Positions 12,820 to 18,295 of a stretch of DNA of 60,114 nt are shown here, in pieces (the stretch's first letter is position 1; the number at the start of each line of letters is the position of its first letter). A program made the translations under genes and the position numbers. The stretch comes from Eubacteriales bacterium (GTDB lineage Bacteria; Bacillota; Clostridia; Oscillospirales; CAG-272). The stretch is from contig JBGVIN010000106.1 in assembly GCA_045123255.1 (NCBI GenBank), forward strand, positions 1 through 60,114, in the 5' to 3' direction. Below the pieces are notes generated by a model. It saw nothing but the letters and a program-made list of their open reading frames with translations, did not search any database and was not told the origin of the DNA.

Positions 12820-14052
12820 TTAACCTACGAGTGAAATAAGCACGCCAGCCGCTATCGCAGAGCCGATAACGCCCGCAACGTTTGGACCCATCGCGTGCAT
12901 AAGAAGGAAGTTTCCTGGGTCTGCCTCTTGACCAACCTTTTGTGAAACACGCGCCGCCATAGGAACGGCAGAAACACCTGCTGAGCCGATAAGCGGATTG
13001 ATCTTTTTGCCCTTTGGCAAGAAGAGGTTCATAAACTTAGCGATAAGCACGCCACTTGCGGTTGCAACACCGAATGCAACGATACCCATTGCGATAATGA
13101 TAATAGTCTTCCATTTGAGGAACGTTGCAGCGGTTGCAGTTGCACCAACTGAAATTCCAAGGAAAATTGTAACTATGTTCATAAGCTCGTTTTGAACTGT
13201 CTTTGAAAGACGCTCTGTTACGCCGCATTCACGAAGGAGGTTGCCGAGCATAAGTGAGCCGATAAGGGCAACTGCATCGGGAACTAAGAGTGCAACGAAT
13301 ATAATAATTACGATAGGGAATATGATTTTCGCCTTCTTAGAAACAGGACGGAGTGAGTCCATTCTAATTTGGCGTTCCTTCTTCGTTGTAAGAAGCTTCA
13401 TGATAGGTGGTTGAATAACGGGAACGAGCGCCATATATGAGTACGCCGCTACCGCGATAGGACCGAGAAGCTGTGGAGCAAGCTTTGACGTAACGAAAAT
13501 AGCCGTTGGGCCATCCGCACCGCCGATAATACCAATTGACGCCGCTTCCTCCATAATGAACTTAATTGGCTCCCAATCAAGCTTATATCCGAGTGCGCCA
13601 ATACCCATAACGCCTGCAAACGTAGCAAAAATACCAACCTGTGCAGCTGCGCCAAGGAGCAAGCTCTTTGGATTTGCAAGGAGCGGACCGAAGTCTGTCA
13701 TTGCGCCAACGCCGATAAAGATAAGACACGGATAAATACCAAGCTTAACACCGAGATAAAGAATATCGATAAGTCCCGGGGCAAAGCCGTCTGTCATAAA
13801 CATTTCCCAATGGATGTGTCCACCCTCAAAAAGAGCCTCGTGGAACACGCCTGCGCCCGGTAGGTTTGTTAAAAGCATACCTATGGCGATAGGCAAAAGA
13901 AGTAGTGGCTCGAACTTTTTAACAATGGCAAGATAGCAAAGCACACAAGCGATAATAACCATTATTATCCACTTCCAGTTGCCGTCAACTATTGATTGAC
14001 CGACACCTGTGCTTTTTAAGAAGTCGAGACACGCATTAAGTACGTTTCCCAT
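12820..14052 (-). CDS. oadB: Na+-transporting decarboxylase beta subunit
   Basis: [49 protein letters not shown]. Confidence 0.95.
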
Positions 14053-14071
14053 CAGAGTCTATGCCTCCGAA

Positions 14072-14428
14072 TTAGTTAAGAGTGCAAAGAACTGTGCCGC
14101 TTTCAACAGTTTGACCTGCTGAAACGTTAACGGATGCAACTGTGCCGTCACCCGCAGCCAAGATTTCGTTTTCCATCTTCATTGCTTCAAGAATCATGAG
14201 AACGTTGCCCTTCTTAACAGCTTGACCGTTTGAAACGTTAACCTTTAAGATTGTACCTGGCATTGGAGCTGATACAGTTTGTGCGCCTGCTGATGCTGGT
14301 GCTGCAGGTGCTACAGGTGCTGCTGCCGGTGCTGGAGCTGCTGCAGGAGCCTTGATATCTGCCTTGTCGATTACTTCAATTGTAATTTCGTATACGTTTC
14401 CGTTAACATTAACCTTATATGCTTTCAT
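14072..14428 (-). CDS. Biotin carboxyl carrier subunit
   Basis: Ala/Pro linker, APMPG, EAMKM biotinylation motif. Confidence 0.95.
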
Positions 14429-14449
14429 TTTTATTTATTCCTTTCAAAA

Positions 14450-14779
14450 TTAACTAACTTTCTTAAATGAGATAACTCGGATAGCGGAAATGTCCGTACC
14501 CTCTTCTTCAGCGATTGCCGCACATACAGCAGCAACAATCTCGCCACGGTTTTCAACCGCTACAGGTGCTGCCACAGGCGCAGGTGCGCTAACTTGTGCA
14601 TTACCTTGCTCTTTCTTCTTTGCGCCACCGTCAAGCAGCTTGTTGCAAATAAAGGTCATAAGCTCAACAAGACCGATTATGCAAGCAAGACCAACAAAAA
14701 CAACCGCTACACCTATCAAGCATACGATTGCCCAGTGAATTTCGCCCTCTGCCGCAAACATTAACATTGAATTGCCCAT
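14450..14779 (-). CDS. oadG: OadG-family (gamma/delta) membrane subunit
   Basis: Single TM helix, Ala/Pro linker, EIVAAVCAAIA C-terminal motif; first gene of the decarboxylase operon. Confidence 0.8.
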   Translation of the reverse strand: MGNSMLMFAAEGEIHWAIVCLIGVAVVFVGLACIIGLVELMTFICNKLLDGGAKKKEQGNAQVSAPAPVAAPVAVENRGEIVAAVCAAIAEEEGTDISAIRVISFKKVS

Positions 14780-15192
14780 TTTTTCACTCCTTTTTGCTCT
14801 TTTGAGTAAGAATATTTTTGCAAAAAAGCTCCAATCTGCAAATCATTTTTTGCATAATCTTGCGTGTTTTTCACACCGCATTTTGAAAGCTCTTTTCCAA
14901 AAACCCCATTCTAACCCATTTTACACTATTGTATCACACATTTTCCGAAAAGTAAAGACTATTATTATATAATAATGTAAAAAATTTGCAAATATCAAGT
15001 AAATTTGATTTTTTATGTGCGAGTTGATTTTTTCTTTTTTCGGTGTTATAATTTATGTAGGTGATGAAAATGAGCAACAATCTTCCCAAAAGGAAAAATA
15101 ATAGACTTAGCCAATTCCATTATAGTAGCGGCTATTCATATTTTATAACCGTATGCACGAAGGATAGAGCGCGTATATTATCGGAAATAACC

Positions 15193-15219
15193 GTAGGGAC
15201 AGGCGTCCTCGACTGTCCG
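15193..15219 (+). repeat. GTAG-type REP inside the RAYT ORF (left)
   Basis: GTAG-ggacag-gcgtcctcga-ctgtcc-g; encodes VGTGVLDCP. Confidence 0.85.
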
Positions 15220-15359
15220 CTGATAAAATTAACGTATTTTGGAGAAATTGTAGATAAATATATAAATCAATTGAATGATTTTTATAAGCACATCTCGGTT
15301 GACCAATATGTAATAATGCCAAATCATATTCATATGTTAATAACTGTACGTGCCGAAAA

Positions 15360-15386
15360 CGGACAGTCGGGGACGCCTGTCCCTAC
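15360..15386 (-). repeat. GTAG-type REP inside the RAYT ORF (right, inverted)
   Basis: cggacagtcggggacgcctgtccctac is the reverse complement of 15193-15219 at 26/27; encodes GQSGTPVPT. Confidence 0.85.
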
Positions 15387-15584
15387 AAGTAAAAACTCCG
15401 TTGTTTCCTCGTTTGTTTCAACGCTTAAACGGTTTTCCAACAAAGAATGCGGCTTCAACCCTTGGCAACGCTCGTTTTACGACCACGTTATAAGAAATCG
15501 GCAGGACTATGACGAAACAAGAAAATATATTTACGAAAACCCACAAAATTGGGATAAGGACGAGCTTTTTTCAATCGACAACTA

Positions 15585-15613
15585 AAAATGCACGGCGAAA
15601 CGCCGTGCATTTT
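15585..15613. terminator. Bidirectional terminator between RAYT and alaS
   Basis: aaaatgcacggcg-aaa-cgccgtgcatttt. Confidence 0.85.
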
Positions 15614-15630: not shown

Positions 15631-18249
15631 TTATTTATTTAAGAGTGCTTCAACAAGTGCGAGTGCATCTGAGATTTTGGAAATTTCCTTACCGCCGCTC
15701 ATTGCGCTATCGGGACGTCCGCCGCCCTTGCCGCCTGTCACTGCACTAACCTCACGAAGGATGTTTCCTGCGTGTGCGCCGTTTTTAACTGCGCCCTTAC
15801 CGCAAACCGCGATAAAGTTGAGCTTTTCGCCAGAGTGAAGTGCAAATACTGCAACGGCATTTTCGTCCTTGTCCTTAATTACGTCACCGAGTGAACGAAC
15901 CGCATCAGCACCCATATCACCAAGGTCACAGGTGATAACGCTAAACGAGCCAACTTGCTTTGCGCCTGCGATCAGGTCATTTACACGAGAGGACGCCATT
16001 TTGGAGTTAAGAGAGTCAATCTCGCGCTTGAGAGATTTGATTTCCTCGTTAACCGCGCACGCGCGCTTTGCAATATCGTTTACGTTTTGGCATTTAAGCT
16101 CGCTTGATGCCTTTTCAAGGAGATTTTCCTTGTTTTCAAGGAGTGAAAGCACGCCGTAGCCTGTTGTCGCTTCAATTCTGCGTACGCCTGCCGCAACGCC
16201 AATCTCGGAGATAATCTTAAACATACCTGCCTTAGCGGTATTATCAAGGTGAGTACCGCCGCAAAGCTCAGTTGAATAGTCACCCATTTTAACCATACGT
16301 ACAACCTTGCCGTACTTCTCACCGAAGAGAGCCATCGCGCCGTTTTTACGTGCGGTTTCAATATCTGTTTCAAGCGTTTCAACTACCGTACCCGAAAGGA
16401 TTGCTTCGTTTACAAGTGCTTCAACCGCTTTAATTTCGTCCTTTGTGAGCGCTTGGAAGTGTGTAAAGTCAAATCTGCCGATTTTCTCGTCAACGTATGA
16501 GCCTGCTTGCTCTACGTGAGTACCGAGAACCTTACGAAGTGCTGCTTGGAGAAGGTGAACTGACGAGTGGTTTCTTGCAATTGAAGCGCGTCTGTTTCCG
16601 TCAACCTGACAGTTAAGCGTGTCGCCAACCTTTACCGCGCCGCTTGCAATTTTACACATATGAATATATACGCCGTCTGCTTTTTTGGTATCAACGACGT
16701 CGATTTCAACGCTCTCGTTTGAAAGTGCGCCTGTATCGCCAACCTGACCGCCGCCCTCGCCGTAGAATGAGGTTGCATCAAGAACTATCGAGCATTCACC
16801 CTCGCAAGCTTCCTGTACGCTTTCGCCGTTTTCGTCAATAATTGCGATAACCTTGCCGCTTGCGTTAAGTGTGGTGTAGCCCTCAAATACGGTCTTTGGA
16901 AGCTTCAAGGATTTTTCCTTATCCTGCCAGCCGCTGATGTTTGCACGCGCACTTCTCGCTCTTTGCTTTTGCTCCTGCATAAGCTGAGTGAACTTGTCCA
17001 TATCCGTGTCAAGTCCGTTTTCCTCGGCAATTTCGCGCGTTAAGTCGATTGGGAAGCCGAAGGTATCGTAAAGCTTGAATGCATCTGCGCCGTCAAGTGT
17101 GGTTTTGCCGCTTTCCTTTGCTTCCTTAATAAGATTTTCAAGAATTGAAAGTCCTTGGTCGATGGTTGCGTCAAAGCGCTCCTCCTCGAGTGCAAGTACT
17201 TTTTTAATATAGTCTGCCTTTTCTTCAAGCTCGCGGTAGCCGTCCTTGCTTTCGCCTATTGCAACCTCGCACATTTCAACAAGGAACGGGCGCTCAATGC
17301 CAAGGAGCTTACCGTGGCGGCAAGCGCGACGAATGATACGGCGCAAAACGTATCCGCGACCCTCGTTTGAAGGGATAACGCCGTCGGAAATCATAAACAT
17401 TGCGCTTCTTGTGTGGTCGGTGATAACGCGGATAGAAATATCGTTTGATGCATCCGCACCGTAGGTTTTGCCCGAAATTTCGCACACGGTGTCAAGAATT
17501 TTTCTTACCGAGTCAACCTCGAACATATTGTCAACGTCCTGCATAACGCAAGCAAGACGTTCAAGACCCATACCTGTATCGATATGTTTTTGTGCAAGCT
17601 CGGTATAGTTACCGTTGCCGTCGTTATTGAACTGCGAGAATACGTTGTTCCAAATTTCCATGTATCTGTCACAGTCACATCCCGGCTTACAGTCGTCTGA
17701 GCCGCAGCCGTACTTAATTCCGCGGTCAAAGTAAATTTCGGAGCAAGGGCCGCAAGGACCTGAGCCATGCTCCCAGAAGTTGTCTGCCTTACCAAGACGA
17801 ACAACGTGGGCAGGGTTAACGCCAATCTTGTTTACCCAAATATCGTACGCTTCCTCGTCGTTTTCGTAAATCGACGGCCAAAGAAGCTCACCTGGGATTT
17901 CAAGCGTAACGGTTAAAAACTCCCAAGCAAACTGAATTGCCTCCTCCTTGAAGTAGTCACCGAAGCTGAAGTTACCAAGCATTTCAAAGAAGGTGCCGTG
18001 GCGTGCGGTGTGGCCAACTCTTTCAAGGTCAGGTGTTCTTATACACTTTTGGCAGGTTGTAACTCTCTTTGACGGAGGCACAACCTCACCTGTAAAGAAC
18101 TTTTTCATCGGAGCCATGCCCGAGTTTATAAGAAGAAGGGATTTATCGTTATTCGGCACAAGCGAAAAGCTGCCTAAGCGAAGGTGTCCCTTGCTTTCAA
18201 AATAGGAAAGATATTTTTCTCTTAAATCGTTAAGCGATGTCCATTTCAT
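15631..18249 (-). CDS. alaS: Alanine--tRNA ligase
   Basis: TCQKCIR, HGTFFEMLGNFSFGDYFK, IDTGMGLER, NHSSVHLL, ELCGGTH, GGKGGG; start re-called at MKWTS. Confidence 0.98.
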   Translation of the reverse strand: MKWTSLNDLREKYLSYFESKGHLRLGSFSLVPNNDKSLLLINSGMAPMKKFFTGEVVPPSKRVTTCQKCIRTPDLERVGHTARHGTFFEMLGNFSFGDYFKEEAIQFAWEFLTVTLEIPGELLWPSIYENDEEAYDIWVNKIGVNPAHVVRLGKADNFWEHGSGPCGPCSEIYFDRGIKYGCGSDDCKPGCDCDRYMEIWNNVFSQFNNDGNGNYTELAQKHIDTGMGLERLACVMQDVDNMFEVDSVRKILDTVCEISGKTYGADASNDISIRVITDHTRSAMFMISDGVIPSNEGRGYVLRRIIRRACRHGKLLGIERPFLVEMCEVAIGESKDGYRELEEKADYIKKVLALEEERFDATIDQGLSILENLIKEAKESGKTTLDGADAFKLYDTFGFPIDLTREIAEENGLDTDMDKFTQLMQEQKQRARSARANISGWQDKEKSLKLPKTVFEGYTTLNASGKVIAIIDENGESVQEACEGECSIVLDATSFYGEGGGQVGDTGALSNESVEIDVVDTKKADGVYIHMCKIASGAVKVGDTLNCQVDGNRRASIARNHSSVHLLQAALRKVLGTHVEQAGSYVDEKIGRFDFTHFQALTKDEIKAVEALVNEAILSGTVVETLETDIETARKNGAMALFGEKYGKVVRMVKMGDYSTELCGGTHLDNTAKAGMFKIISEIGVAAGVRRIEATTGYGVLSLLENKENLLEKASSELKCQNVNDIAKRACAVNEEIKSLKREIDSLNSKMASSRVNDLIAGAKQVGSFSVITCDLGDMGADAVRSLGDVIKDKDENAVAVFALHSGEKLNFIAVCGKGAVKNGAHAGNILREVSAVTGGKGGGRPDSAMSGGKEISKISDALALVEALLNK

Positions 18250-18295
18250 ATCAAAAATCCTCACAATTTATAGTTAATATATTAAAAACACATAC

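Follow-up and report, generated by a model that had tools for sequence, protein, structure and literature searches.

A stretch of 60,114 nucleotides (nt) from an Eubacteriales bacterium of the CAG-272 lineage (assembly GCA_045123255.1, contig JBGVIN010000106.1; hereafter the window) contains a gene for a REP-associated tyrosine transposase (RAYT) in whose reading frame two inverted copies of a GTAG-tagged repetitive extragenic palindromic (REP) hairpin are written, one on either side of the segment encoding the catalytic histidine-hydrophobic-histidine (HUH) motif. From comparison with related genes, we consider it probable (about 0.6) that these are two copies of the presumed cognate REP of the enzyme, built into the gene as cis-acting DNA sites and held there at the nucleotide level. 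The encoded nuclease would bind, and possibly cut, the two arms whenever replication or transcription exposes its gene as a single strand, and gene and substrate could then not be separated, forming a compact REPtron. The internal copies could act as a protected reference for the REP family, could feed back negatively on RAYT expression, or could do both, at the cost that the inverted pair promotes slippage deletions that strip the HUH segment and kill the gene. RAYTs are the textbook case of a domesticated transposase, and the clade described here bears on how they recognize, spread and stay matched to REP families.

The two arms (Table 1) are complementary at 26 of 27 positions and lie 140 nt apart. 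Each is built on the same plan, with the GTAG tag, a 6-bp stem (GGACAG/CTGTCC) and a 10-nt loop, and folding of the GTAG strand as single-stranded DNA gives energies of -8.7 and -8.4 kcal/mol for arms 1 and 2. None of 100 dinucleotide-preserving shuffles gave any match, and the pair is present in more than 100 independent assemblies, which together exclude chance or an assembly artifact. A first-pass annotation, made from the sequence of the window, had placed two 27-nt inverted GTAG-REPs in frame around the HUH motif and had seen no other copy nearby; both arms indeed lie inside the open reading frame (ORF) 15070-15585, and our search returned no further copy of this REP type in the window or in the RAYT flanks.

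The ORF is an intact RAYT gene with predicted activity, as the annotation had proposed, because its product combines a fold like that of PDB entry 4ER8 with invariant catalytic residues and invariant or nearly invariant counterparts of the GTAG-reading residues. The protein matches the Pfam family Y1_Tnp (PF01797) with 25 bits (cut-off 23) and scores 69.5 bits against the NCBIfam model REP_Tyr_transpos (NF047646), under the cut-off of 80. A profile of 45 homologues finds E. coli TnpA-REP (4ER8) with an E-value of 1.8e-10, and the AlphaFold2 model, with a predicted local distance difference test (pLDDT) value of 78.6, has 4er8_A as its top Foldseek match (E = 1.5e-7, template modeling (TM) scores of 0.59/0.61). 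The HUH motif (M83-P-N-H86-I-H88) lies on strand 86-93 of the model. Residues H86, H88, Y153, N157 and P158 are invariant among the 45 homologues, and the last three align with Y115, N119 and P120 of the E. coli enzyme; the signature of class 2 TnpA-Y1 proteins is Y---NP (Quentin, Siguier, Chandler & Fichant 2018, BMC Genomics 19:475, PMC6006769; hereafter Quentin 2018). W132, Q133 and R142, conserved at 100% or at least 90% in the A1 homologues, are the counterparts of W94, Q95 and R104, which read the 5' GTAG of the REP according to published work on the E. coli enzyme.

In the model, arm 1 encodes the tip of a beta-hairpin before helix alpha1 (strands 38-42 and 50-54, with a turn of pLDDT about 65), while arm 2 encodes a disordered loop just past the HUH strand (residues 98-108, pLDDT below 50). 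The arm 1 peptide is a 7-aa insertion relative to clade B, a group of RAYTs from several phyla described below, and the arm 2 peptide is a 9-aa insertion relative to E. coli TnpA-REP that aligns with the clade-B hairpin peptide GQPQGVAPT. The homologue alignment and the low-confidence loops of the model agree in placing both REP-encoded peptides in variable loops at the surface, a possibility that the first-pass annotation had raised.

The host assembly (2.0 Mb, 93% complete) contains about 57 GTAGGG hairpins in about eight sequence families, most of them in mixed intergenic clusters. Six copies belong to the window REP type, and the four that the genome-wide count adds outside the window are all extragenic (C2:483, C10:39533, C108:2188 and C125:12442) and share nothing beyond the REP itself. 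Two paralogous RAYT genes are also present (C2:9522-10025 and C9:138-674), the paralogues being 43-58% identical, and each of the three genes has its own REP family at corresponding positions, in every case with extragenic copies. The REP of the C2 paralogue, GTAGGGGAGGATATTATCCTCCCG, is read as the peptides VGEDIILPP and GRMISSPT and has nine genome copies; that of the C9 paralogue, GTAGGGGCGATTCACGAATCGCCCG, is read as VGAIHESP and RAIRESPLQ, has 12 genome copies and additionally flanks the C9 gene on either side. The isolate genome of Gemmiger formicilis holds 46 copies of the internal REP of its own RAYT, and across 37 genomes of the window's genus the presence of the 10-nt-loop REP family is associated with that of a RAYT homologue (16/18 versus 5/19, Fisher p = 1.9e-4). 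The arms are the same sequence as dispersed host REPs and, as the comparisons below indicate, are kept as two separate hairpins of the single-stranded DNA type on the GTAG strand.

The annotation had also suggested that the 194-bp unit formed by the arms and their spacer might be a domesticated REPIN. Neither insertion nor domestication of a REPIN is supported, since the 140 nt between the arms encode a conserved part of the protein core and neither the unit nor residues 42-106 have a second copy in the host genome; the arms moreover evolve separately. The Pseudomonas REPIN-RAYT systems (Bertels & Rainey 2011, PMC3116915; Bertels 2017, PMC5581495) share with the window locus the two inverted REPs, the one RAYT lineage per REP family and the co-evolution of enzyme and repeat, but the REPIN is a short, non-coding and repeated doublet, unlike the coding spacer and unrepeated unit found here.

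To evaluate the conservation of the pair, 120 full-length copies were gathered from relatives and from 80 clostridial loci (Oscillospiraceae, Acutalibacteraceae, Ruminococcaceae and others). An inverted GTAG pair inside the gene occupies the same two codon positions in 105 of the 120 genes, compared to 3 of 120 in the reversed-sequence control, and the sampled pair-bearing genes have diverged down to 36% identity, yet position, codon phase and +/- orientation remain constant. Arm 1 invariably begins at codon phase 0 (GTA GGG, read as VG), while arm 2 ends in two phases, giving a peptide that ends in PT in 90 genes and in PLQ in 14. A stricter, protein-only test for reverse-complement-compatible peptide pairs, which needs 24 perfect nt, misses arms with loop differences and was not used for prevalence, was positive for 33 of 150 cluster representatives and for none in both controls.

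The pairs fall into 38 stem/loop classes with 66 distinct arm sequences, and the encoded peptides are wholly different between hairpin classes and not conserved. When the two arms of the same gene are compared, the GTAG tag differs at 0 of 395 positions, the stems at 3.5% and the loops at 8.2%. Thirty of the 48 stem differences are compensated inside the hairpin, and in 15 genes compensated stem changes have made the arms unlike each other, with both still able to fold. Among the nine genes with the window REP type, nucleotide identity reaches 96.7% in the arms versus 63.3% in the rest of the gene, and identical amino acids are respelled by synonymous codons at 3.5% in the arms versus 53% elsewhere. 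The first-pass annotation had named the retention of the peptides with loss of the palindrome at synonymous sites as evidence against its reading; the opposite was found, the peptides being lost and the palindrome kept.

The non-Watson-Crick pairs of the stems indicate which strand is involved. On the GTAG strand, G.T wobbles number 15 in arm 1 and 15 in arm 2, against one and zero A.C pairs, respectively, with all wobble cases deriving from about four REP families. As the GTAG strand is the template strand in arm 2, the wobbles of this arm are A.C in the mRNA. Since the peptides vary while the DNA and its strand-specific wobbles are kept, the conserved object is, on these comparative patterns, a strand-specific DNA hairpin and not the peptide, and the constraint that they reveal is not arm-to-arm RNA pairing.

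An RNA element, in which the arms would pair as a 27-bp stem around the HUH region or form local RNA hairpins controlling translation or mRNA stability, is improbable. In the window, the 211-nt region does fold as RNA at -78.7 kcal/mol (z = -10.4), long stem included, and REPs are known from the literature to stabilize mRNAs and to affect translation. However, in the 15 genes mentioned above compensated changes keep each hairpin intact although the arms no longer match each other, the arm 2 wobbles are of the G.T type on the template in 15 cases versus none of the opposite kind, and the GTAG tag is invariant on opposite strands of the two arms, which fits a strand-specific DNA-binding protein rather than one RNA. 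The mRNA fold-back envisaged by the annotation is thus thermodynamically possible in the window but is not what is conserved.

Even less credence can be given to a function at the protein level, with the REP peptides acting as functional loops, for instance in DNA contact, and the DNA palindrome arising as a by-product. In its favor, loop 2 lies immediately before the helix whose aligned counterpart in E. coli TnpA-REP carries the hairpin-contacting residues R78 and K82. Against this, the peptides change completely from one hairpin class to another, arm 2 is read in two frames, synonymous positions are conserved, the loops have pLDDT values from below 50 to 65, and Quentin 2018 models the corresponding insertion away from the DNA surface.

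A RAYT tree was built with the loop columns removed, leaving 134 columns and many unresolved forks. On this tree, REP class changes 52 times, compared to a minimum possible of 37 and a shuffled mean of 84, and the 14 copies without a pair are dispersed within pair-bearing clades; as judged from this topology, the sampled clade inherited the pair from its ancestor, and the pair co-diversifies with the protein. The pair-less copies have either classical flanking REPs (+ upstream and - downstream; L128 and L052a), one flanking and one internal REP (L023, L053 and L054), or degenerate arms.

A second line of evidence comes from clade B, recovered by a protein search with a consensus-like sequence. 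Its proteins, up to 81% identical to the query, come from Methylococcus, Deltaproteobacteria, Chloroflexi, Chthonomonadales, Acetothermia and Alphaproteobacteria, and the window protein matches the clade with a BLASTP E-value of 7e-29 at 29% identity. Here both hairpin peptides (VGAGPRACP...GQPQGVAPT) come after the HUH strand, in variable copy number. In 7 of 7 loci from at least five phyla, a + GTAG hairpin is present at gene nt 265 and a - hairpin at nt 297-319, forming a tight doublet. The 8-bp stems covary, the arms are 89.4% identical at the nucleotide level versus 67.5% for the rest of the gene, and synonymous respelling is 7.3% versus 53%. Three clade-B genomes (2.5-4.8 Mb) contain only two to eight REP copies each, with none in the controls; the near absence of extragenic copies refers to these three genomes, those of L136, L142 and L144 having been left out. 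With so few copies, exchange with extragenic REPs cannot explain the maintenance of the doublet.

In-frame REPs inside tnpA-REP genes of subclass 2.4 (RAYT group 4) have already been described by Quentin 2018. According to that paper, subclass 2.4 is characterized by the motifs NH[IFV]H, WQ and YIxNNP (their Table 1), its REPs are generally inserted between HuH and Y, and the insertions represent a peripheral extension with probably little impact, modeled away from the DNA surface. The window RAYT resembles this group in its NHIH and WQ motifs and in having GTAG REPs in frame, with arm 2, like the REPs of subclass 2.4, in a variable peripheral loop past the HUH strand (beta3/alphaC). It differs in its Y motif, YIYENP (clade consensus YIxENP), which is one position off YIxNNP. 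Arm 2 follows the placement between HuH and Y, whereas arm 1 lies upstream of HuH in another loop, so that the pair is split around HUH. The hosts, gut Clostridia, are not among the taxa named for subclass 2.4. On sequence grounds, the window clade appears related to subclass 2.4 and clade B fits its description; in view of this fit and of the match between the window protein and clade B, the phenomenon as such is already known. What is new here is the split layout bracketing HUH, the clostridial clade and the quantitative evidence against a neutral passenger, namely the covariation, the synonymous sites, the strand-specific wobble, the co-phylogeny, the deletion alleles and the orphan doublets. 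The portions of Quentin 2018 used here report no covariation, synonymous-site conservation, co-phylogeny or deletion alleles.

The main rival explanation, which we regard as unlikely but to be taken seriously, is that the internal REPs are tolerated passengers. REPs would insert or duplicate preferentially near the gene of a cis-acting enzyme and pile up, functionless, in the only two surface loops that permit it, and ongoing turnover of REPs, or gene conversion, would keep them similar to the genomic family. Subclass 2.4 has been interpreted in essentially this way in the literature. The passenger explanation is consistent with the position of both peptides in low-confidence loops that are insertions relative to E. 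coli TnpA-REP and clade B, with the variable REP copy number in the loops, with the existence of flanking-only layouts and of layouts with one flanking and one internal REP, and with deletions showing that the pair is costly, and it is the view held by Quentin 2018. It is less compatible with the unchanging placement, codon phase and +/- orientation of the arms across 105 of 120 genes down to 36% identity, or with a tree on which losses rather than gains are scattered. Clade B, in addition, holds perfect covarying hairpins with respelling of 7% versus 53% and essentially no extragenic donor copies. Taken together, tolerance accounts for where in the protein the REPs lie, for their changing copy number and for the cost, but leaves the constant position and phase and the nucleotide conservation in clade B unexplained.

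Several observations nevertheless weigh against our preferred reading of the arms as cis-acting sites. The case for a function is drawn entirely from comparative patterns. REPs are tandemly duplicated inside the loops of L057, L014, P0035, P0092 and L077, which fits ongoing activity at tolerated sites, and the variable flanking and hybrid layouts fit ongoing REP activity too. The recurrent destructive deletions represent a cost, and the judgment of Quentin 2018 that such insertions are peripheral and probably of little impact points in the same direction. In the clostridial clade (clade A), homogenization through exchange with extragenic REPs could mimic selection. To this are added the shortness and the unresolved forks of the 134-column tree and the small number of REP families (about four) behind the wobble cases.

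A stronger version of the cis-site reading, which we put forward as tentative, is that selection at the nucleotide level holds the hairpins as an obligatory cis-element by which the RAYT acts on its own gene. They might work as an autoregulatory roadblock or nick site, or as protected master copies seeding the enzyme-matched genomic REP family. If this were true, the clade-B enzymes, which have the doublet without a REP family and are often encoded in type I restriction-modification operons, would have their own gene as main DNA target.

The cost of the pair is evident from its instability. Alleles without the inter-REP segment, whose existence the annotation had envisaged, do occur in relatives (G004, G016 and G003), with at least four independent deletion alleles that lack the HUH segment (residues ~45-101; Table 1), next to an additional, degenerate RAYT copy (G003:C89a). 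Their junctions differ, one showing CTGT microhomology, another a single hybrid hairpin GTAG...CTGC, and others breaks inside arm 2, which argues for slippage across the inverted repeat rather than precise enzymatic excision; as far as the junction sequences tell, the pattern looks like that expected for replication slippage at an inverted repeat.

These alleles might also be taken as products of a self-excision switch, a form of the self-limitation suggested by the annotation, in which the enzyme would cut both internal REPs, remove the HUH-coding segment and thereby inactivate itself irreversibly. The loss of residues ~45-101 twice in G004, in G016 and in G003, with a further allele in G004:C3, is what such a switch would leave behind. 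We nevertheless consider it quite unlikely, as the junctions are all different, in line with slippage rather than site-specific cleavage, the two GTAG hairpins do not share a strand as those at the left and right ends of IS200/IS605 elements do, and no inverted or excised forms are found among about 150 copies. An inversion switch was rejected on similar grounds, with no inverted allele in the same set of about 150 copies and an inversion that would truncate the protein soon past arm 1.

Two of the HUH-less copies in G004, L037 (G004:C38:24482-24739) and L036 (G004:C32:48479-48793, - strand), represent the same derivative (...SNITVPTRQN...), one with a frame open to the contig end and the other with one stop codon; it was apparently duplicated or dispersed once the catalytic segment had been lost. 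In L077 (JAFTLK010000086.1), loop 2 of the RAYT is enlarged by several REP-derived peptides and the simple repeat RTMTMTRTMTRTMTRT, which shows how large the loop may grow. Many contigs of relatives end exactly at intragenic REPs (G004:C41:2-178; G004:C10:2-181; G026:C34 and C18:14-304; G027:C80:1-222; G014:C24:6-314), so RAYT genes are systematically fragmented in short-read metagenome-assembled genomes (MAGs) and such genes are probably undercounted there. The inverted pair thus matters in practice, since it breaks assemblies and generates HUH-less pseudogenes.

Among other known systems, the window locus can be compared with the E. coli REPtron (TnpA-REP, also RayT or YafM, PDB 4ER8; Messing 2012, PMC3479197; Nunvar 2010, PMC2817692). 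Both share the fold (TM 0.6), the HUH motif, the catalytic tyrosine, the asparagine and the GTAG-contacting residues, as well as dispersed 5'-GTAG REPs and an inverted pair at or in the gene. In E. coli, however, the REPs flank the gene and the protein is without both loop insertions, whereas the window RAYT has no flanking REPs and, with 171 aa ending soon past the Y motif, is without the long autoinhibitory C-terminal tail. Intragenic REPs (Di Nocera 2013, PMC3733652) and Rickettsia palindromic elements (RPEs) are likewise in-frame palindromic repeats tolerated in protein loops, but their sites are not conserved and the genes that hold them are unrelated, most of them serving DNA repair and replication. 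The list of intragenic cases includes no transposase gene, and only overlaps of REPs or terminal inverted repeats (TIRs) with gene ends are noted. The IS200/IS605 family of insertion sequences (IS), with the TnpA of IS608 and ISDra2, has in common with the window RAYT a Y1 HUH enzyme, imperfect single-stranded DNA hairpins and a 5' guide tetranucleotide. Its hairpins are subterminal, outside tnpA and both on the same strand, and its copies are near-identical, in contrast to the opposite-strand hairpins inside the ORF and the 43-58% identity of the RAYT paralogues in the host, which rule out an IS200/IS605 element.

With 38 hairpin classes, each written twice in the gene of its own enzyme, these genes represent a natural catalogue of enzyme-hairpin pairs, which makes the rules of specificity directly testable. 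The view of the insertions as harmless is challenged by the nucleotide-level conservation, the compensatory evolution and the persistence of the doublet without extragenic REPs. If the hairpins are cis-sites, they would offer a compact means to link a DNA enzyme to its substrate and to limit its own expression. Bertels 2017 (PMC5581495) scored only extragenic flanking 16-mers, a design by which internal REPs would escape notice, and surveys restricted to flanking intergenic repeats will overlook them in the same way.

Table 1. Features of the RAYT locus in the window, with the deletion alleles of related genomes in the last row.
Feature	Position	Strand	Remarks
RAYT / TnpA-REP-type Y1 HUH nuclease gene	15070..15585	+	Intact; 171 aa from the ATG at 15070
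REP arm 1, GTAG-tagged hairpin, GTAGGGACAGGCGTCCTCGACTGTCCG	15193..15219	+ (coding strand)	Read as VGTGVLDCP, V42-P50
REP arm 2, GTAG-tagged hairpin, reverse complement GTAGGGACAGGCGTCCCCGACTGTCCG	15360..15386	- (template strand)	Read on + as GQSGTPVPT, G98-T106
Inter-REP segment, 140 nt	15220..15359	+	Encodes helix alpha1 and the HUH strand including MPNHIH
MPNHIH	15316-15333	+	H86 = 15325-15327, H88 = 15331-15333
Predicted catalytic tyrosine codon Y153 in YIYENP	15526..15528	+	Aligns with Y115 of E. coli YIYINP
Sigma-70-like promoter TTGATT-17 nt-TATAAT, extended -10 TG	15024..15052	+	5' of RAYT; consensus match (10/12), which says nothing on function
Terminator-like hairpin, 13-bp stem and T-run	15585..15613	+	Directly 3' of the RAYT stop; common to convergent alaS
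alaS	15631-18264	-	Convergent with the RAYT gene
Deletion alleles	G004:C32 and G004:C38 (same junction, in frame), G016:C29, G004:C3, G003:C89b		

A second in-frame start candidate of the RAYT gene is the GTG at 15061. The neighbors are housekeeping genes, with alaS on one side and, on the other, an operon of the decarboxylase sodium-pump type (12820-14779, all on the minus strand) encoding the decarboxylase beta subunit, a biotin carrier and small subunits. Compared with the window region 12820-15585, an oadB-like neighbor (80% identical) also adjoins the RAYT of L015 (G006:C314) from the same genus, a protein only 50% identical to that of the window and of another REP class (GGGAGG stem, 8-nt loop). 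Only L015 shares this neighbor, which is not within the flanks of L007 and L008, the closest homologues of the window RAYT.

In clade B, 3 of 7 genes are embedded in type I restriction-modification operons (L136 1501-2064, L139 1501-2079 and L142 1501-2124), their hosts being Methylococcus, Chthonomonadales and an alphaproteobacterial MAG. They lie directly after hsdS (Methylase_S) or a RhuM gene with a 4-nt overlap, and two precede hsdR. Perfect "double-foot" palindromes, GTAGGGGCGCACGGCCGTGCGCCCCTAC, are present in several copies in the Chloroflexi genome G062 (C24:4995-5022, C78:51735-51762 and C99:4997-5024) and agree with the double-foot type reported for REPs of subclass 2.4.

In the host genome of the window RAYT, REPs of several families form clusters resembling bacterial interspersed mosaic elements (BIMEs) at C2:5353-5795, C10:17187-17425, C108:2188-2305, C125:12012-12468 and C39:2622-2740. 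At least five REP families are without a RAYT gene in this assembly, for example GGGGATG (seven copies) and GGGGAGGGG (nine copies). The clusters also yield spurious ORFs of 90-160 aa, a practical point for annotation.

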